A stretch of 59,201 nucleotides of DNA, the filler included, from Porpidia crustulata (Eukaryota): assembly GCA_964255105.1 (NCBI GenBank). It is 5 parts of 5 records of this genome, joined end to end, with 100 filler letters (N's around TTAATTAATTAA, not from the genome) between each part and the next. Parts side by side here need not be neighbours in the genome. Positions count along the whole stretch, not along the records: positions 35,612 to 47,364 come from CAXUWE010000606.1; 4 more parts are not named here. One strand, written 5' to 3'. The number at the start of each line of letters is the position of its first letter. Positions within the stretch are counted from its first letter, which is position 1. The notes beneath the pieces were generated by a model. The model was not told the origin of the DNA, ran no database searches, and saw only the letters and a program-made list of their open reading frames with translations. Below are positions 35,612 through 47,364 of the stretch, piece after piece. The position numbers and the translations under genes are program-made.

Positions 35612-38600
35612 GTGATGCTAGATCTAGGGGGCGTTTGTGGGAAGTGTGGTACCGAAATTGTTGATCGTGGACGGGAGTCTTTTCAAGGCCCATGGTATTT
35701 GAGGGTCCGGATGCTGTGCTGGAGCGTGATATTGTAGTCATTTTCAACTCCTTCAAGCTCCCAGGTCCTCGCGCAGGCATATATCGGGGATTAGATCGGC
35801 CATATATATTTCCCAGAAGGGCGAAGCAGAGCTTCGAGGCGAAATGAAGTTGAGGTAGATGATTGGAAGAACTTCGATAGGCTGAGAAATGGAAATGGTG
35901 GGTAAACCAAGCATCCGTGGAGGCAATTGAGTCTCATAAAGAAGGCACTACAGACACTTGAGTCGTTGCCGAAAACATCTTTGTGTGGTAATATTCCTGC
36001 TTCGACGTCCGCTGCCGACAAAGTCATCCAATCTTGCAGACAGTATCTATCCCGCTCGTAACCTTGCAGATGTCGACTGGTCTAATTTTGGTGAAACCAT
36101 GCTGATATTGACGTCAAGATTCGACTAGCATTGTATCACACCTCCCTCTCAATCCACTAGAAGTATACATACCTTCAAAATCTGACGATTACATCCGGCT
36201 GTTCGAAAACACACAATGCCTAATCAGCATAGATCCGATAGTCTTCCAAGCTTCCACAGCCGTCATAATGGAAAATCCGCCTGGTGATGTGCCCTAGGAG
36301 AGACAACGTACAGTCCCGGCGTTCCGAATCAATACCTATCAGAACACCGACGAGCTCGAGCTACCCAAGCCTCTCAAATGGCTCTGTTTCTTTTGTGCGT
36401 CTATAAAGCGATTGCGAGATTGCGTGATCCCAGGTCGATCATCAGACTCTTATTTCCTCCTATGAGAATCAGCGAGATCAGCAGCAAGTAGGTTTGATAT
36501 TTAGGGAGCGGTGCAGCAGGCTGGAGCAACTCGGTGCGTCTGTCATGCGTTGTCGGAGAATTTGTCAGAGAGGAGGGGGACTGGGAATATGGGGAACGTG
36601 GTTTCGTGGGGTTGAAGGTTGGAGTTCGGGGAGTCTCGGTCGTACAGGCTGCATATGAATGATGAATGCTGCAAAAACAAGCCACTGTCTTAGTTGCCAA
36701 CGTGTTTTTAATGGTTGGCCGTCTTCATTGCCCAAATTTTCGGCAGAGGAGCTGCTTGATTGTCGTAGGAGTGCGTCCTGAGTGTCCAAGGTTGCTGGTG
36801 GCTCAATCGTTACACCTGCAGAATCTAGAAATCGGGAAGAGAAAACCAAGATTGTCTACGAGATGGGTTGGATCTGCTGATGATCAGTGGTCAACGAAAA
36901 GACAATGGCTCTTCTGATGGGTTAGAATTCCCTACGACCATGGCAACTCGGCAAGAGTGGAGGTTTTAATGTCCTGCAAAGTGGTAGCTTTGTAAGATTG
37001 GCATTGACAATCAATGGTGGGAATATCCATCTGCTCATCATGTTGAGGGGGTTCGAGCTCGCAATAGAACAGTCATGACGGCCCTCGAACACCATAGCCG
37101 GTCAATCAATCTTCCATACGGACGGCCATCACAGCTCTTCTCAGGTGAGATCTCAAAGGCCTGCCCACGGAATCCCATAGCCCGCTAAGCTCCTACGTAT
37201 GGACGCAATATTTTCAGGATTCAGGGAGGTACCGTTAGGTACCGTTGGCCGTGGGAGCCAGATGGAGTAGATCTCCTGTCTCTTATCTCTTGCTAAATTC
37301 TGTAACTCATTGCGCTCTAGAAAGCCAATACACTCTTTTGCCTTTGAATACTCGCCTTGTCACCCACTTATCCTACTGCTTTGCCATGTCCAGGCAGCTA
37401 TGTCGTGCATGATGTAATCAAAAAGACGTTGTTGCGGCTCTGCCACACTACAGCGTATGCACTGTCATCTGTACGACATAACGGTACATACATGGTACAG
37501 GCTTCGGAAGTAGAGTTTCATACTTTGCCGGCGACTGCGACTAGCACTCTCAGTATGAGTAGATCAGATTCTTCAAGGCATCATGTAGACTCACTGCTCC
37601 AACTACTGCTGCTCTCATTTACCATACTAACCAATTCAAGATTGATTGGCAGGTACGTACCTCCCTTGATGTTTGTTGACATTTCTCTCATCGATTCTCT
37701 TTGTTGGGGGACGAACAGTGGAAACGGTGGAAACAGTAGCCGAGAAGAGGGGTCGTCAGCACCCACCATCCACCACCCACCATAACTAATAAGTTAACAA
37801 CCATAAGGGCGGCCGATCTCTGCAGCATCACCGTTTTCTGTCCAGCAAATAATGCGATAGAGCCAATCTAGTCTGGGAGCCAATCACCTCACCAATCACC
37901 CATGGGAGACAGGGGAATCACAAATGGTGGTGTGAGCAGCTAGCTTAGTGCAACGATCCCAGTTCATTGCTAACAGATAGAGCTAGTACCGCGCCGTAAA
38001 AGGATTCTTCGTGGGATGTGAGTGGTCAGTGGCTTGCCTTATGAAGCGCTCACGGATTCGAACTGGGGGGAGGAGGGGAGGACTCCGAACGACGTGGTCA
38101 GTGATCATTGGCTGGGAAGGTTAAACCCTGGTATCTTCTTGTGGTCCAGGTTTGCTCATCAAAGTAACACTGGAAAAATCCTCGAGATCGGAGCCCATCG
38201 GAAGGATTCTGACGAGTTGCATGTAACGACAATCGCTAGCTTGAATTTCTCGCGCCTCGATAACGTCAATCACTGACTATGTTCTGATACAAGCGACGGC
38301 CGCATCTGGATTGAATCTTGGATGAAAAAGGAAAAAGGGATTTCAGCGCCGCTCTCTTCGGCAGTAACCTCCCTCGGGGAGCGGGTCACACTTGCATATG
38401 CAACAGCGGCTTGGTGCAGGCGAAATCTGACCACTCACAGCGCAGATGCCGTTGAGGAAGAAAAGAGGCTAGAGGTGTATCTGGCGTAGGGATGGGCTAC
38501 GACACCTTCCATTGGGGAGGGATAGGTGGGTCGCTGGCCGTGGCTTATTCTGTTATCAGGATAAAGAGGTCCACTGACAATAGAAAAGGAAGAGAGCGAT

Positions 38601-41332
38601 CGGCGAGGAACCTGTGGAGTCGCTTATTATGATTTACACTTTCTCAACTTACCCTTTGCGGACTTAATCGATATTGGAAGATTCGGAGGCCGAGCAGAAC
38701 TATGCTCCACAGTCCACATCGCCAGTACCCCAACTTTTCGTTTAGCCGTGCCTGGTCCATCCCGATAAACGGTTGTACGACATACCTGCCATGCTTGAGA
38801 TAACATGAAACAAGCTGTGCCTTGCTGTGGCACATGAAACGAATTCGTGGTGGAGGGTGCCTTCCTTTCCTGGCGTTCAGATGCCGAATGGTAGGGGCGG
38901 TTGCACAATTCCAAATCTGCGCACTGTAGTGATATCGATTGAAGGACCAGACTGTGGTCATACCCATGAGCAAAAAAGTAAATTCGTTTCACTATCTACC
39001 ATGTATGCCTGATGTAAACATCGAAGACAGTGCCTGAGGGTTGAGACATTGGACAGCTGGATAGCTCTAGCGAAGCGGATGCAGTGCAAGCTTAATCTTG
39101 CAGTGACACGATGGAGCCTTGCTTGCTGCAACAGTCTAGAGATCCATATGCGGTTTCTCATCAAGGTACGGAGGCAAATCGGATGCCAATCATCTCCTCA
39201 ACGGATCGTGAAGACTTTGCAATTTGCAAGACTTCTGTCGAATTACTTAGAGGATGTCAATAGAGACTGCGCTGATTCGCCAGCGTCTGCTTCATGCTCG
39301 GGGGGTGACGAAGATTCGGTATGTGATGCGATGACCTCTAGCCAATGCTCACCAAGGAATACGAGAGCTTGATCATGGCATCGGCTCATCTTGTGTTGTG
39401 CCACGTTGATGACTCTCATGCTCACTGCCCCTACTACGGTACTCACGAGTCGCAAATACATGAGCTCTCATATCATCCATCATCTATCTTCATCAAACAT
39501 TCCACGGATGCGGCGCTTCTACCTCTCGGTCTCGTTTTCGTCGTTCCCGGATTTCGGTTGTGGAAAAGCCAGCGCATCCCTCCACACCGCCCACACTCTC
39601 TCCTATCAAATTCTTTGGCTGCCCACCACGCGCGGGTAGACGTTCTAGAGCTAAGTCCCGTTTGGGGTCTAACTCACGCAGCCTTCCTTGATCGGTTGCT
39701 CATTCCATCACAAGTGTCCCATGGTTCAACTTTAGTCATCACCATCCGAATGTTGTGGTTCTATGGTTCTGTGGTCCTGTGATCCTGTGGTCCTGTCAGT
39801 TTGTCCGTCTGTCACTGTCAGTGGGAATTGGGAGTTGGGTGCCTCACCTGTCGTTGGCAGTAATACCTTTGTAGTTAGTGAAGAGTAAGAATGCCAAGCG
39901 CTGTATCCCATCGTCCATCTTTACTTCCCCCCACCACCATTATTAGTAATTATATTCAATGCCGTTCATTCGTGGCAGAAAACTCCACTTCTATTGATTC
40001 CGCTCGATCTGACCAATGAGAGAAAAGACCCTTGCAACTCCACCGTTGATGTGTCTCGGCTCAAACCTCCCAGTCCCACCAGCTATTCCGATATCGTACG
40101 ACAACAGCAAGAAAGGCCTTCCTGGTCAATATTCGTCCAGATGACCCTTCAGGGAATCATCAATCGTGATCGACTCGGGGCGATTACAGAGCGTGCTTGT
40201 TCCCCAACCTTCCCGCCCCACCAGACAGGCATCCATTCGGTTGATCTCCCTCCCTAACTAGGTCAATCCAACTAAATCGCAGTAGTCTTCCCGAACTTCG
40301 CCTCCTGCGCTTCCACGGCGAACCTTTTCTAGAATGGGGGAGGGAAAGAGAGATAGTGAGAGACAGGGACAGGGAAAGCGCAAGAGAAAGCACCGTATTC
40401 TGGCGATGTTCGTTCTCCGTTGCTGATCTCATGATGCTGCAACGGCCATTGCCAATTTCCAATTTCTCAGATTGCCATGCCATGCCACCCCAGCTATCTC
40501 ATTCTCTGCCGCCCCGTCATGTGCAATCCAATTGCCAGCAGCTCAACCGATATCGAAGCCCAAGTCTCAACTCTCGACCAGGCTGACGGGGCGCGCCGCT
40601 CTGATTGGCCCTCTTCCGTTGGTCAGGGCTCTTAGTCGATCTAAATTGCTGCCAGGGTTGAGGGCCACTTAAATCGACGGCAGTGGGTCGTCTCTTCGCT
40701 TGCCTGCATCGTGCAGTCGACTAGAGCTAGGGTGCAATTCCGCTGCAGCCCAGACGCAAGCCGACGCTTGTAAGACAGATGAGCTTGGCTACTCTTGCTG
40801 AAAGTCAACACCACGCAGTCTTTTCTGCTCTTTTCTCCAGCGAAGCTTTCACATGACACAGACCACTTTGGGATAATCGTCTTTCTTTTTTTGCTGCTTC
40901 TTGCGCCGTCTAATCTCTGGACCGTGGTACATTGGGCCCTTCCCAATCATACCAAGATACCAAAACATCATTGCGGCGTCTACTGCAACCTAAAGGAACG
41001 TCTGGGGTCTCTGTCAGATTATTATTATCCATCATTTATTGCCCCACCTTCTCGCTCAAGCCGATCAGAAGTGGCATCGGGCTGCGCACCACTGCTACTG
41101 CTGCTGCTACTGACTATTACTATCACCTCTGTTGCTGCTACCTCTATCAGCTTGACATCCATCCTCCCATAAACTCCCTGCGTAGCTGGCGCGCCGTCCC
41201 GCAATCTGCGTCTGCTGTAAAAGGGCCCGTTCTCCCGCAGCGCATCGCATTGCAGCTCTCCCAGTCTCCACCAAATTGGCACTCAGTCCAATTCAATCCT
41301 TTCAATTTGCACCACAGCCTGAATCGTGTAAC

Positions 41333-41374
41333 TTGTTGTTGTTGTTGTTGTTATTATTATTATTACTACTATTA
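41333..41374 (+). repeat. Compound microsatellite (TTG)n(TTA)n(CTA)n upstream of stuA
   Basis: Direct reading. Confidence 0.9.
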
Positions 41375-41855
41375 GGTTGTTGTGACTATTGCCCGACCAA
41401 GCCAAAGGCAAAAGACTGCTGTAGCCACAATCCCTGCCGTGTAGGCCAATTGGAGCCCACAATCTTCGTCACGCATACTGGGACGATATCTTCTCCAACC
41501 CTCAAATCTCCAGATCGAAATTCCACTATCGGCGACAAAAGGACCATCAACATTGGGGGAACAATCTTCCGTCTTCCATCACCACCACCGCTGTTCCCAA
41601 CTCTTCTCGCGGTGCGATATACCATTTAACCTTTCACACTGGGAAAGTGATCCTTCACCTTCGGCCTTCTGTGTCCTATCACAGCGACAATCTAAAAGGC
41701 CGGTATTTTCGCGCCAGTCCTCGCGCTAAAATCCACTCCCTCCACCACCAACAACACACCCCAACCTCCCCTTCTCTTCGTCCATTTCTTCCTTTTACCT
41801 ACCTACCCTCCATCCCTGGTGCGTTCCGACGCGGTCGAGCGCTTTGCGATTTTGC

Positions 41856-43147
41856 ATGATCACTCCAAGGCGCTGGCAGGTACGTACAGGTGCAGCCCGC
41901 TGACGGTGTTGCCTACCTTATCGCTAGTCTGCATTCCGTCTGCGCCTAACTAACGGCTGTGCTGCAGAATTGATTAACGACCAAGGTTTTGTCCAGCCCA
42001 CCAGCAACGATAGTAACGGCCATCCACGATCTTTCTTTACGCAGACACGCCAGTACCCGGTAAACGCGTTCCTGGAGCAATTGTTGTCTTTGAGCTTCGC
42101 AACTCCGCCTGTCCCAATAGAGCACCCTGAAAAACATACAGCCCGCTACGATTCGCCTCCGTCAAACCAGCAAACCTTCATCTGGGCTTTTCTCTTTAAT
42201 GACCTGAAACGAGCCTCACGTCAACATTGCAGTTTATTCGCCTTATTTACTTCCCAGCCCAAACGTCGGGTTGTCTGTTCCAATCCAGTGTACATCAGCA
42301 CCTGTCAGATCCGCATCACCAATCCAGCTCGAAAGGGCAACCACCAACCCCGTGCATCAGCTGCAAGTCGCGAAACCTGCGAAGCTTCCCCTTGGACAAT
42401 CTTATCGATAGGTGCAAGTGCTCTTCGCTCGAACTGCGCAGTTCGACGCCCCGCCATTCAGAGGCCAGACAAGTAGCGGCTGGACGCTCGTACTGTACGT
42501 TTGGAGAGGGAAAATAGAGCAGATTATACTCGGATCTCTTCAAGAGAAAATAGGCCACGATAAATCGTACTGGATATTCTGATCTCGGAGAGCCTGCGCA
42601 GCCTCGATTCAGCACACCTAAGCCCAGATCCTGATTGAATAGAGGTTGACGTGTTTCGTTAGTCTGTGATCGATTGCAACAAATCGTAAGCCCAGGTCAC
42701 TCAAGGCCCTTCCCTTACAATACCGAAAAACTGGAGCTCCCTTCAATCTCCCAGGTCCACACGCGAGGTCCCGCCGATATTCCGTGGTACAACTCCCACT
42801 ATTCACAGCGTTCATTACTGTCAGGCGACCGTTTACCAAACCTGCATCTACCCCAATCGTACACTTCAAGCGCCGCTTGCGGCCCAACTTCATCTCGATC
42901 TGGTCTTTCGGAATCATCCTCGAGCGGCAACGGCAGCCACTATCCGTCTTCTCAGACGAGTACGTCGTCATATCCTGGTGCCAACTCCGGGATTGGCCTC
43001 AAAACACCTTCGCCTTCTCCAACTGCCCAGAACATCGTGCCGCACCCGCACGGTTTATCCGACGAGTCTGCGGAACATTCGGAGTACACAAGCCAGCCCC
43101 AGGGTATTCAACCTTACACTCAAATTGCTGAACCTTACAGCGTCACC
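41856..43147 (+). other. Putative stuA leader exons (41856-41879, 42233-42494, 42663-): in-frame N-terminal extension or spliced uORF
   Basis: GTACGT donors at 41880 and 42495, YAG acceptors at 42232 and 42662. There are 161 stop-free, ATG-free codons in frame upstream of ATG 43148. Confidence 0.5.
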
Positions 43148-45299
43148 ATGAACCAACCGCAACAGTACATGGATTCACATACTCCACATATGTCGGCCGG
43201 ACAGTCGTATGCACCTCAGCCGACTACCGCAGGTGGGATGTCACATTACCCACAGTATCCTCAGCAATCATCGGTCCTCCAGAATGGATCCAGTGGCTAT
43301 GCTCCGCCACCCAGCTCGTATGGTTATGCTTACCCGAATGTCACATCCCCACAAGGTGGCAGTCATCCCATATCCTCTTCTATAGGCAACCAGATGGGCC
43401 AAATGCTACCATTGCCAGGTATTTTCTAGGATTTGGAGGATGATCATGTACGCAAGCTAATGTCCGCAGCAATGCCTGGAGGCGGGCCGCAAAACGGTTA
43501 CGGTGGTGTCCCTGGGGGTACTCCGGGATATTCATCTCAAAGCTACGATACAACTGGCCAGGTTGCACCTCCTGGAATGAAGCCTCGGGTAACGGCAACT
43601 CTGTGGGAAGACGAGGGTAGCATGTGTTTTCAGGTTGAAGCTAGGGGTGTATGCGTTGCAAGACGAGACGGTACGGTCCACTACATGCCGCCAAATTGGC
43701 GAGATGTCTCGCCTCATGGTTCAATTCCTTCCAACCAACAACTAACGATCTTTTGCAGATAATCACATGATTAATGGCACGAAACTCCTCAATGTTGCGG
43801 GTATGACTCGAGGCCGTCGGGATGGTATACTCAAAAGTGAAAAGCTGCGCCATGTGGTCAAGATTGGCCCGATGCACCTGAAGGGAGTTTGGTGCGATTG
43901 CTGTAGTCTCCGTTTATTGGACATATGGCTAATCGTCCGCAGGATTCCCTTTGAGCGCGCTCTAGATTTCGCGAACAAGGAAAAGATAACCGAACTTCTA
44001 TATCCTCTGTTCGTGCACAACATAGGCGCTCTACTCTATCACCCAACGAATTCGAACAGGACAAACGCTGTGATGGCTGCCGCAGAACGCCGCAAGCTTG
44101 ACAACAGTAAACAGCAACAAGGCCTCCTCGGTCCTCCTAATTCGCAACCGCCAAATCTCGTCCATCATCACTCGATGAACAACGCTGTCGGTTCACACGT
44201 GTCTTCAGCGCCGCACTCCATTGCGCCGCATCCTTCGGCTGGGAGACCCGATCTTAATCGAGCGCACACTTTCCCCACCCCTCCGACAAGTGCATCAAGC
44301 ACCCACATGAGTATGGGAAACCAAGGAAATTCTTATGATTGGCCAGGTGCTCAAAGTGCGCAGTCTGTTCCGATTGATAACCATGTACATTCGACACCCA
44401 ATACACCAGCAACCACTCCTCCGGGAGCGTCAATGCAGACCTACCCAAACCAGCCCTACGACAGCTCTCGGCCGATGTACTCGACAGCGACATCGCAGCA
44501 AGGCCAGTACGCTCCTCAGCAAAATGTGCAGCAGCATGGCCTGCCGCGTGCTCCCATGCAAACCAATCCGTATTTGAAGCACGAAATGGGCCCTCCTACG
44601 TCGCGTGCGCCTGGATTAGGCTCAGAGCTGGAACACTCTGATCACAAGAGTGAGTCCTATCCTCACAGCCAGGGAAATGAGCAATTGGGCCATGGAGCTG
44701 GTGAAGAAGAAGCAGATCATGAGCATGACGCAGACTACGCGCATGAAAATCATACTGCATACAACGGGAACCGTGGCCCCACTTATACGTACAATTCGGT
44801 TGCGAATCTTGGTTCAATACATGGAGAACCTTCTCATCTCTCACCCGAAATGAATGGCTCTCCCTCTCATCAGAATGGAACTGGACGAGGAACGCCTCGC
44901 AACTCCACGGGAAGTCAGAGTCAATGGGCGGCGGGATATCATAGCCCGCCACGCGCTGCACCATCCAGCAATTTGTATAATATAATGAGCGACGCTCGGG
45001 GAAGTGCGTCAAACGGAAATTCGACGACGGAGAATTATGCCTCGGCCCCATTACAATCTACTTATGCACCCTCACACATCAATGGCGCGACTCCCTCGAA
45101 CAAACGCATCCGTGAAGACGACGACCAAGACCATCAATCTCGCCCTGCCAGTCGCGGCGATGATATTGACGCAATGAAACGCCGCAAACTCAAAAGAGAA
45201 GGCAGCGTGGGCGGACCCATAGGCACAGGTTCCTTTGAACGAAACGCACGGCCGATCAATCAACCTCGGACTACCGCTGTCCCGCGAGGCCGTCGGTAA
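43148..45299 (+). CDS. stuA: APSES transcription factor StuA (exons 43148-43418, 43470-43670, 43759-43891, 43943-45299)
   Basis: N-terminus [14 protein letters not shown] domain [99 protein letters not shown]. Also [14 protein letters not shown]. Confidence 0.96.
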
Positions 45300-46730
45300 C
45301 CCTCAGCTTTTGATATTTGGATGATTTTCTGTTTTACACGGCGGAGCGTTAGAAGAGCATCTGGCGAAACTACGAATACGGTTCATGATGTTCGGTGATG
45401 AATCTAACGACGGGAATTTGGGTACCCAGCAATATACATCTACTTTGCTCGACACATTTTCTTTAATTGGTTTCTAGTTGGATCTACCTAGAAGATCTTC
45501 CGATCCATGGACACACCTTCCGACACATTTCTTTAGCTGTCAATTCGAAGAACCTCAAGGTTCATATTGACGACCTTGTCTCTATCATACATTTACTTGC
45601 ATTTTTATGACCTCACGACATGACCTTCGATTCTTCCACCACTCCGCCTACCCTCGCCGGGAGGCGTGACGATTACGAATTCCGTTACCGTAGGATATTT
45701 GGAGCAGGAGGTATGGGCGACGAAGATACACTGTTTAATCGACCAAAAAAGCCTTTTAACGATCCAAGGCCGGGGAATGTGGAAAGCGCTGCAAGCGAGG
45801 GGAAGGGGTCTACTGTTTGGCTTTGGGCAATGTGCTTTAGACATCTATAGCTATGCGCGAATGACAAAAGTGGGATTTTTTCGAGAGCTCGAGTACAACG
45901 ACCTTGCGAGATAGAGGCGATGTTGTGACGGATCGTGGTCGATCAACGCGTGCGTAATCTGCTGAACATGCTTTGAGCCCAACGACCATGTCTACCGCAC
46001 ATGCTGTTGCAGCCGGCCCTGTAATTCTTCAGATCTGCCGGATCTGCTGAACATTAGCATTTGAAGCGAACGCGAAAGGGTGCGTGCTTCAGATCCCGAT
46101 TTGAGTAGAAGGAAAACGAGAGGCGCCTGTTGTACGAGTACCGACATGCAACTAGATATTGATGCACCATCTCCCAAAACCAATGCAGCTGTACATCTGC
46201 ACGACTTACGTGCGTGAGAGTCTGTGCTCTCTGGGGTCGACTTGGTCGTATGAATTTATCCGCAAAGGTTGCACCACTGACAGTCCAGATTGGGAGACGT
46301 CCTTTTGGCGCGCCAATGTTCTCGCCCCGACATCATTTATTCCAAATCCACCATTTCAACCATTTACACAACATTCAAGCCTTGTTGCCAGGATCGTCCA
46401 ACATCCACGGTAGCGATCGTCCCGATTCCAACATTGCTGCTTCGCGCATGTCCCTGGCCACAAGTGGCAGCATTCTGACTTTCTCATACCCGACTAGCAA
46501 AAGATTGCGACATCCGGAAAGCCCACGATAATAAACCTTGTTGTCACACCAACGCCAACAACCCACCTGCACGCCCGAACCAGGCTTCAAATTCAATTCG
46601 GGGAGATAGCATCGACACCAATCGCTCCCCTGTTCCCTCAAAAACATCGCCGCGACAGCTCCAACTCTCCAGCCCCGCATATGCTGTCTTCGTAGATCCG
46701 GTGGTTCTCCAGCCTAGACTAGCTTACACG

Positions 46731-47364
46731 ATGCCACCTCAACGCACGCCACACCCCCCCGCCGCGGAACCCTCGCGCAAGATCTTTGATCCCTGGAACT
46801 CCTCCGCGACAGGCCACCAGCGGGCTGACAATCGCCTCGCGGGCAGTACATCATGGCGCGCCTCACGCACCATGAAGCTAGCGCATCAGTACAAAGCCGG
46901 GGCCGGGGGTGGGAAAAGAATGTACGACAGCGTTGGCGCCGGGAGCAAAAACTTCGGCACCGACGGCCGTAAAGAAAATGGCAGCTGGGAAGTAGACGCG
47001 CCTGGTCTGCGAGAGAAAGGATGGCAGGACGTGCGGGGCCTGCTGCTGGCGGGCAACGAAGGCACACACAAGCAGCGCGGGGCGGACTCGCTTAGATCAC
47101 GAATCACCCTCGGGGCAGCGCAACCCGCAGGACCCGAAGCCGATCTTCCGCAATCTATGCATCTACATCAACGGCTCCACCGCCCCGATGATCGGCGACT
47201 TCAAACTCAAGCACCTGCTGGCGGAGCACGGCGCCAGCCTTAGCATCGCGCTTGGCAGAAGAACCGTCACACACGTCATCCTCGGGACGCCGAACGGGAG
47301 CGTTGCTGGCCCCGGTGCCGGGGGCGGGCTGGCGGCGGGGAAGCTCCAGAGGGAGATTCGGCGC
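46731..47364 (+). CDS. Fungal BRCT-domain protein, partial (3' end in gap), with an apparent frameshift near 47045-47130
   Basis: N-terminal FDPWNSSATGHQRADNRL..SWRASR is in one frame. BRCT-like IFRNLCIYINGSTAPMIGDFKLKHLLAEHGA..GRRTVTHVILG is in the +1 frame. Confidence 0.7.

Follow-up and report, generated by a model that had tools for sequence, protein, structure and literature searches.

The stuA locus and its upstream open frame

The window analyzed here is a stretch of 59,201 nucleotides (nt) from the Porpidia crustulata assembly GCA_964255105.1, composed of five parts joined by filler letters. On its plus strand, in the part taken from CAXUWE010000606.1 (positions 35,612 to 47,364), lies a stuA gene with an unusual feature: the reading frame ahead of its usual ATG start codon is open, conserved and devoid of ATG codons. 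Comparison with relatives suggests that this gene encodes two forms of the StuA transcription factor, a short one started at the ATG and a longer one probably started at a CUG codon 139 codons upstream. The gene itself comprises the following features.

Window, + strand: StuA (APSES) gene with four coding exons, separated by introns of 51, 88 and 51 nt
43148..43150, + strand: canonical ATG, start of the short isoform; Met-Asn invariant in all aligned homologues
43148..43418, + strand: coding exon 1 from the ATG on; no internal stop in the joined model
43470..43670, + strand: coding exon 2, start of the APSES domain, after intron 43419-43469
43759..43891, + strand: coding exon 3, APSES core, after intron 43671-43758
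43943..45299, + strand: coding exon 4, after intron 43892-43942, ending in TAA at 45297-45299

When the exons are joined, the frame that begins at 42731 runs without an internal stop for 792 amino acids (aa), of which 653 follow from the ATG at 43148. The joined model shares 70.7% identity with protein P0036 over 801 aligned positions and 49% with an Aspergillus protein named StuA (P0017). P0036 scores 35.8 bits against KilA-N (cutoff 23.8), and its 90% cluster includes a Lobaria immixta protein. Because the introns split the domain, the unspliced window frame at 43746-45296 scores below the same cutoff (17.9 bits, E 0.0029). The alignments with P0036 and P0017 place the product among proteins with an APSES (KilA-N type) DNA-binding domain, and its matches include proteins named "cell pattern formation-associated protein stuA" that align end to end. 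By sequence homology, the gene is stuA, encoding an APSES transcription factor. Two public sequencing runs match the stretch. One, here called X1, is a soil metatranscriptome that partially covers the locus with sequence from a relative about 94% identical to the window, and one of its RNA contigs contains the junction of the 88-nt coding intron (43671-43758). The other, X2, is identical throughout and is probably the source of the window's DNA, and so is not independent of it.

Ahead of the ATG at 43148 the frame remains open for 166 codons (42650-43147), closed upstream by a TGA at 42647-42649, and contains no in-frame ATG. An earlier note on this DNA had counted 161 stop-free, ATG-free codons here, a figure that is correct when the count begins at 42665. 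ATG codons are scarce in every frame of the surrounding sequence. Plus-strand positions 40853-43148 (2295 nt) contain two, at 41856 and 42199, and the gaps of 1003 and 949 nt that they leave are the two largest of the 59-kb window, in which ATGs are spaced 56 nt apart on average and the third-largest gap is 357 nt. Dinucleotide-preserving shuffles of 41655-43147 contain a mean of 13.7 ATGs, and none of 500 had as few as the two observed. The upstream open frame exceeds chance.

A protein-coding extension of StuA

Five features lie directly upstream of the canonical ATG.

42694..42730, + strand: conserved block 5' of the proposed start, composed of the element GGTCAYTCAAGGCC (read as GHSRP in the window) and the context ACC GAA AAA; 92% identity to loci L001 and L009 (see below)
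42731..42733, + strand: CTG, proposed non-AUG start of long StuA, with A at -3 and G at +4
42731..43147, + strand: 139-codon N-terminal extension, free of ATG in every frame; differences skewed to codon position 3, predicted to be disordered
42731..42853, + strand: the most conserved 41 residues of the extension, from alignment
42995..43021, + strand: second conserved patch, GLKTPSPSP, in which P93 is invariant and P95 nearly so

A phmmer search with the 166 upstream residues against 1.84 billion representative proteins returned 35 matches at E<=1e-3, 20 at <=1e-10 and 6 at <=1e-30, most of which are unspliced open reading frame (ORF) calls spanning the extension and exon 1 and terminating within intron 1. 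A word-indexed search limited to longer proteins retrieved 41 full-length models of 546-1216 aa (most 680-850), named StuA or "hypothetical" at their source and derived from Aspergillus, Penicillium and metagenome-assembled genomes (MAGs) of lichen fungi. A profile search gave 93 matches and added Paracoccidioides, Polytolypa, an Onygenales species and an Elaphomyces cluster. At the nucleotide level, metagenome contigs scanned with the peptide pattern T[EGA]KLELPS[IL] yielded 246 stretches and 47 confirmed loci (L001 and onward), which together with the window make 48 sequences, 33 of them distinct. An alignment of 23 sequences reveals a sharp onset of conservation at the conserved block (..PWYN..), with all sequence upstream of it differing between homologues.

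Substitutions within the extension follow the codon. Differences between the window and L001 number 13/8/54 at codon positions 1/2/3, affecting 42 codons synonymously and 20 non-synonymously, while those with L009 number 19/8/52, and the skew toward position 3 recurs in 17/17 pairs examined. The X1 relative behaves similarly, with 16 of 23 listed differing sites in 42663-43147 at position 3 (p=0.0004) and a distribution of 2/4/12 from 42731 on (p=0.004). Although indels are numerous, each of the 30 distinct loci that extend to the AUG keeps the frame from CTG to AUG open. This pattern of purifying selection indicates that the last 139 codons before the ATG at 43148 are protein-coding. The earlier note had proposed an in-frame N-terminal extension and a check of it by homology and codon-level conservation; the homologues and the position-3 skew bear the proposal out for these 139 codons.

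Residues L1, E2, L3, P4, S5, I6, V9, R12, D16, P18, W19, R27, L35 and P36 of the extension are invariant. Farther along, GLKTPSPSP resembles a proline-directed phosphorylation site and may serve as one. A Pfam scan of the extension found no family, and the best protein-atlas score, 0.88 to disordered parts of animal transcription factors, is under the useful range. AlphaFold2, run on the extension with 22 sequences, gave a confidence score (pLDDT, predicted local distance difference test) of 53 and no secondary structure. These predictions are consistent with a disordered tail carrying a linear motif, which may be regulatory or bind a partner.

Two side observations concern the start of the extension. 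Protein P0030 (405 aa, from a Logan contig of 3560 nt) carries the motif LELPSIS..H.RGPVD.WYN.HYAPRP at residues 179-219 together with a GATA zinc finger at 369-397 (Pfam E 3.9e-11), so that either the motif is a portable module common to another transcription factor or the model is chimeric. In run X2, record 6 holds a second contig of 151 nt over 42720-42864, at depth 2.9 and with 11 differing positions at the start of the extension, which points to another strain, to a related fungus or to a paralogous copy in that material.

An invariant CUG in a fixed context

The start word ACC GRA AAR CTG GAG is present in 48/48 sequences, Aspergillus- and Penicillium-like loci among them. Among the 33 distinct loci, the CTG, the following GAG (Glu), the A at -3 and the G at +4 are each found in 33/33. 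Bases -9 to -6 read ACCG with one exception, and base -4 is A in 33/33 even though the codon to which it belongs alternates between Glu (GAA) and Gly (GGA). Synonymous sites -7, -4, +3 and +6 are invariant or nearly so, while third positions are free from +9 onward; the next Leu codon is CTC in 18 loci, CTA in 6 and CTG in 9. As judged from this alignment, the constraint from -9 to +8 acts on nucleotides and is of the kind expected at a start site.

Sequence immediately upstream offers few other places to begin. The open stretch before the CTG lacks an in-frame ATG in 32/33 distinct loci, the frame is closed by a stop 6-105 codons upstream of the CTG (median 22 over the 30 loci in which a stop is reached), and between stop and CTG there are almost no other near-cognate codons with a purine at -3 and G at +4. 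The stop is closest in L025/L027 and L028/L029, at 6 and 9 codons ahead of the CTG. In these same loci the GGTCAYTCAAGGCC element stands one base out of register with the CTG and the in-frame stop lies between the two, so that the element is constrained as nucleotides.

The element GGTCACTCAAGGCCC (42694-42708), about 36 nt ahead of the CUG, also occurs in L001, L009, L014-L028 and L046, in varying frames, and could be a protein- or RNA-binding site or could cause scanning ribosomes to pause. A hairpin downstream of the CUG, as a structure that might aid non-AUG initiation, was considered and rejected: the consensus fold of 22 sequences reaches -2.16 kcal/mol with 0 covarying pairs.

Spliced transcripts of relatives

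Five of the 47 loci (L039, L040, L043, L041 and L042, representing about three lineages) are spliced transcripts. In all five, the ORF that begins at the CTG crosses the intron sites and the APSES region uninterrupted. It ends after 770-776 codons in L039, L040 and L043 and is open to the end of the contig after 337 codons in L041 and 531 in L042. Protein P0140 matches L040 at 99.8% identity over all 845 residues in a single alignment. Leaders before the CTG measure 832-1322 nt or longer, except that the L039 contig includes only 174 nt. ORFs begun by an upstream AUG all terminate 49 nt or more ahead of the CTG. The CTG frame is closed by a stop 17-86 codons upstream, with no in-frame AUG between (in L039 the frame is open for 58 codons to the contig edge), and no AUG occurs in any frame from the CTG to the canonical AUG. 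An upstream in-frame AUG is missing from five mature mRNAs, all from relatives of the window's fungus, as well as from the 32 distinct loci mentioned above. Where gene callers begin the 825- and 845-aa ORFs with "M", the DNA reads GTG and TTG. For Elaphomyces granulatus, NCBI annotates the matching gene as the 648-aa AUG form, compared with transcript ORFs of 825-845 aa in that cluster.

AUG avoidance and a leaky-scanning model

AUGs are avoided in every frame of the interval between CTG and AUG. Across 30 distinct loci (3883 codons; L038 and L045, which run off their contigs, and L046, which has a stop, were dropped from the count) it contains 0 in-frame and 6 out-of-frame ATGs. Codon-order shuffles lead one to expect 63.6 out-of-frame ATGs, and 0 of 1000 were as low (minimum 42). 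After the AUG, 3263 codons contain 118 in-frame and 117 out-of-frame ATGs. Proteins repeat the contrast: in the 57 of 74 that have both landmarks (17 were dropped), 7068 extension residues include 0 Met versus 255 Met in 6717 residues after the AUG. At the invariant Pro18-Trp, the codon before TGG is CCG, CCT, CCC or once TCG, but never CCA, which would create an ATG. At the other end of the interval, Met-Asn at the canonical start (M167 and N168 of the alignment) is invariant in 23/23 homologues, and the base at -3 of the AUG is A in 21, G in 7 and T in 2 of 30 loci (A or G in 28/30).

We consider the CTG at 42731 to be the start favored by this comparison, and estimate a probability of roughly three in four that it initiates a long StuA while the AUG provides the short form. 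Under this model, an AUG-poor leader of about 1 kb, with two tiny upstream ORFs (uORFs) whose AUGs lie in weak context, would deliver scanning ribosomes to the CUG at 42731. A fraction would initiate there, presumably with the initiator methionyl-tRNA, yielding a 792-aa StuA that begins Met-Glu-Leu-Pro and whose first 139 residues would be the disordered extension with its conserved 41-residue motif. The remaining ribosomes would scan through 417 AUG-free nt and start at the AUG at 43148, producing the 653-aa form that is usually annotated. The two weak-context mini-uORFs may tune the flow of ribosomes. We infer the use of the CUG, the accumulation of both isoforms and the role of the extension from conservation of the sequence.

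Several observations count against this model. First, its argument for CUG initiation is drawn entirely from conservation, and the 33 distinct loci are kin sequences from about 15 lineages instead of independent samples. Second, the pattern used to collect loci demands Leu at the start position, so relatives with another residue there would go undetected. Third, L046 is an exception, with an in-frame ATG and an ATG-rich leader in an atypical tandem duplicate, and the protein models P0072, P0028 and P0040 begin with M at or beside the CUG position (for example MLELPS.. and MDLPSIS..). Finally, the GHSRP codons just upstream of the CTG vary mostly at third positions within the window's clade, and 4 of 5 differences between X1 and the window in 42663-42730 fall at position 3, so that some translation may start slightly upstream, for example at TTG 42674 or ATC 42683.

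Two of these exceptions have features of their own. In L046 (3725-4342) the end of the leader and the start of the extension are duplicated in tandem. Copy 1 has the in-frame ATG and a stop after 44 codons, and copy 2, at the contig end, retains the CTG while its CCA TGG creates an out-of-frame ATG; the locus is probably a decaying or rearranged copy. If the first codons of P0072, P0040 and P0028 are true ATGs, some species may have converted a weak start to a strong one, which would make them natural "long-form only" variants.

Other explanations of the long frame

Were the GHSRP codons translated in the window's lineage, initiation might occur mainly at a non-AUG codon upstream of 42731, such as TTG 42674 or ATC 42683, adding up to 19 residues. 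The third-position bias across the clade agrees with this, as does the position of about 42663 at which divergence from X1 falls. However, neither codon is conserved between lineages or has the combination of A/G at -3 and G at +4, and in L025/27 and L028/29 the GHSRP element is out of frame with the extension. We therefore regard a mainly upstream non-AUG start as unlikely.

Less probable still is an upstream AUG supplied by another splice in the leader, possibly specific to some lineages, as many automatic gene models assume. In 41 full-length public models the long protein begins at an ATG, and a phase-compatible YAG|GT is present at 42694/5 in the window, L001 and L009. Yet the N-termini of the public models all differ upstream of the conserved block, and AG|GT precedes the GHSRP element in only about 7 of 12 lineages inspected. 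In five spliced mRNA contigs from relatives, the 174-1322 nt that precede the CTG are colinear with genomic sequence and have no in-frame AUG. The avoidance of out-of-frame ATGs within the extension would also be unexpected if ribosomes arrived there already translating. A conserved splice acceptor before GHSRP or the CTG was rejected as a general feature, as it is found in some lineages only.

That the extension is untranslated and conserved as a regulatory leader sequence at the RNA or DNA level is very improbable, for although the non-coding leader at 41968-42232 is conserved to a like degree (83-86%), such a reading conflicts with the strong position-3 skew and synonymous excess, with a frame kept open through many indels in all 30 AUG-reaching loci, with an amino-acid motif conserved across Eurotiales, Onygenales and lichen fungi, and with the lack of conserved RNA structure in the consensus fold of 22 sequences.

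Relation to known systems

The closest parallel to the proposed CUG-initiated StuA is cpc-1 of Neurospora crassa, whose conserved N-terminal extension is initiated at near-cognate codons that are themselves conserved, along with A at -3 and G at +4 (Ivanov et al., 2017; PMC5487733). As described there, cpc-1 shares with stuA a fungal transcription factor product, a long leader with uORFs and an AUG-less in-frame extension under purifying selection, and its near-cognate codons are conserved across Pezizomycotina (PMC5487733). The two also differ. The cpc-1 product is a bZIP protein (the CPC1/GCN4 homologue), whereas StuA is an APSES protein. According to the same article, cpc-1 has several candidate near-cognates, conserved in 73-98 of 100 species, whereas stuA has one CUG that is invariant in all loci found; the cpc-1 extension overlaps uORF2, whereas the stuA uORFs all end before the CUG; and initiation on cpc-1 was tested in vitro and in vivo, whereas the stuA CUG start is predicted from sequence conservation (PMC5487733). 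A CUG start has also been proposed for IDI-4 of Podospora anserina, as cited in that article (PMC5487733).

Sets of isoforms that begin at CUG and AUG are established for other regulators as well, with mammalian c-Myc and FGF2 being dual-isoform examples. IDI-4, c-Myc and FGF2 resemble the stuA model in that a well-placed CUG ahead of an in-frame AUG gives, through leaky scanning, a longer isoform of a regulator, and differ from it in being unrelated proteins with direct protein evidence.

Conidiation and sexual development, as well as secondary metabolism and traits related to virulence, are controlled by StuA orthologues in many molds. The protein has been studied for 30 years as a single AUG-started product and is routinely annotated and manipulated from its AUG. 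Work on Aspergillus nidulans stuA by Wu and Miller in 1997 reportedly described two promoters, a long spliced leader and mini-ORFs exerting translational control, and is said to have treated all transcripts as encoding one AUG-started protein, without an in-frame CUG extension. The A. nidulans gene is orthologous to that of the window, which likewise has small uORFs in a leader of roughly 1 kb that is probably interrupted by an intron. Public automatic StuA models of 740-850 aa (from Aspergillus, Penicillium, Paracoccidioides and lichen MAGs) already carry the extension, but they reach it from mutually inconsistent ATG starts by way of unsupported upstream sequence, whereas curated-style entries from the same species cluster, such as that of Elaphomyces granulatus, use the short AUG form. 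Among the papers listed, a literature search found nothing linking StuA or APSES proteins to non-AUG initiation or an N-terminal extension; the classical A. nidulans papers were outside its reach, and an early remark may exist there.

A broader and more tentative hypothesis, which we would presently expect to fail more often than to hold, is that StuA is a pair of proteins throughout Eurotiomycetes, lichen-forming fungi and their relatives. Their ratio would be set by start-codon stringency at the invariant CUG, and hence by eIF1/eIF5, stress or development, and the 41-residue docking motif would give the long form a distinct activity through, for example, its partners, localization or stability. 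If this is true, many of the constructs used for complementation, tagging and overexpression, having been built from the AUG, would have tested only half of the gene. A deeply conserved CUG-started isoform as such would alter the gene model and explain why automatic annotations disagree over the 5' end. It would give a regulator of development, one already believed to be under translational control, a further layer of such control, and would be a very clean case in nature of fungal initiation without an AUG, combining a single invariant CUG with a constant context and an interval devoid of AUGs.

The transcript leader

The leader upstream of the conserved block contains five further features.

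41655..41855, + strand: putative 5' portion of the transcript leader; similarity to L001 sets in abruptly near 41655
41856..41879, + strand: uORF1, first eight codons, in weak context (T at -3) and ending at an AG|GTAYGT donor; ATG and donor are kept in L001
41880..41967, + strand: candidate leader intron of 88 nt, with a GTACGT donor, the branch sequence CTAACTAAC at 41945-41954 and a CAG acceptor at 41965-41967
42199..42207, + strand: uORF2, ATG ACC TGA, two codons in weak context; ATG AYC TGA in L001 and L009
42233..42494, + strand: non-coding leader, termed exon B in the earlier note; nucleotides conserved to about 42340 and variable beyond

Identity to L001 is 84% over 41655-41879 and undetectable upstream. 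The candidate intron is 90% identical to L001, which is unusually high for an intron, and a 48-nt alternative would use the acceptor TAG at 41925-41927. Splicing of the 88 nt would leave uORF1 with nine codons in both the window and L001, stopping at TGA 41971-41973, and two additional ATGs of L001, one in its GTATGT donor and the other 28 nt further, both lie inside the candidate intron. The donor, branch and acceptor signals make this 88-nt intron a plausible candidate. The peptide encoded by uORF1 is not conserved in L001, and a pattern search for uORF1 with its intron recovered the arrangement in the window and L001, perhaps also in L015 and L045, and in no other sequence.

AUG uORFs are conserved in the leader, uORF1 in L001 and uORF2 in both L001 and L009. 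In the window, L001 and L009, uORF2 sits within a nearly invariant stretch of about 60 nt. More generally, a minimal uORF (AUG, 0-4 codons and a stop) occurs about 400-620 nt before the CUG in L001, L009, L025, L028, L038/41/42, L043 and L045, and short uORFs at similar distances in other lineages encode different peptides. uORFs of this AUG-stop-like kind can trap ribosomes or serve as sites of reinitiation. The non-coding leader at 41968-42232 is 83-86% identical to L001 and L009, compared with about 82% for the coding extension against L001, which suggests that this part of the leader functions at the RNA level beyond its uORFs. Sequence from about 42341 to 42693 is variable (about 54% identity), and conservation resumes with the block at 42694.

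The earlier note had explained the long frame by splicing within this leader. Exon A (41856-41879), exon B (42233-42494) and exon C (from 42663) would be joined to give an AUG-started, Cys-containing extension of 257 aa, and skipping of exon B would give a uORF of 16 codons. Its arithmetic is sound: 41856-41879 encodes MITPRRWQ and is followed by GTACGT, exon B is preceded by CAG and followed by GTACGT, and TAG precedes 42663, so that the GT..AG-flanked segments A, B and C join in one open frame into StuA and the A-to-C join halts at TAA 42687-42689. The donor at 41880 is conserved in L001, where the GTACGT at 42495 is also present. In L009, however, the donor at 42495 is absent, and exon B does not evolve as coding sequence in either locus. 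Its indels of 2, 1 and 1 nt in L001 and 12, 2 and 1 nt in L009 shift the frame, its substitutions lack periodicity (27/38/34 and 24/34/32 by codon position, respectively), and no homologue among the matches shows its peptide. The donor at 41880 would require an intron of 353 nt to reach exon B, and the best conserved partner signals (CTAACTAAC and CAG 41965-41967) instead give 88 nt. Other lineages have stops shortly before the CTG, and the spliced mRNAs of relatives lack such an upstream coding exon.

The X1 relative is equally difficult to reconcile with the splicing scheme. The acceptor AG at 42661-42662 reads GC and the proposed branch region is altered, while the stop of the exon-skip uORF, TAA 42687-42689, reads TCA; the TGA at 42647-42649 reads CGG. 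X1 contigs run unspliced across 42232/3 (contig 42194-42348, with flanks of 39 and 116 nt) and across 42662/3 (flanks of 71 and 514 nt). Both bridging contigs could be pre-mRNA or DNA; a third X1 contig is spliced at the 88-nt coding intron, and mature RNA of the relative is therefore present. On the relative's contigs, the junctions 41879/42233, 42494/42663 and 41879/42663 were not seen. A CTG at 41873 had also been suggested as a start, and it is absent in L001. We regard the A/B/C scheme as highly improbable. The in-frame extension, the long uORF-bearing leader and the idea of a non-AUG start survive from the earlier reading, while the A/B/C splicing, the Cys-containing exon B, the exon-skip uORF and the CTG at 41873 do not.

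A (TTG)n(TTA)n trinucleotide microsatellite lies at 41333-41376, about 300 nt upstream of the point at which conservation of the leader begins.

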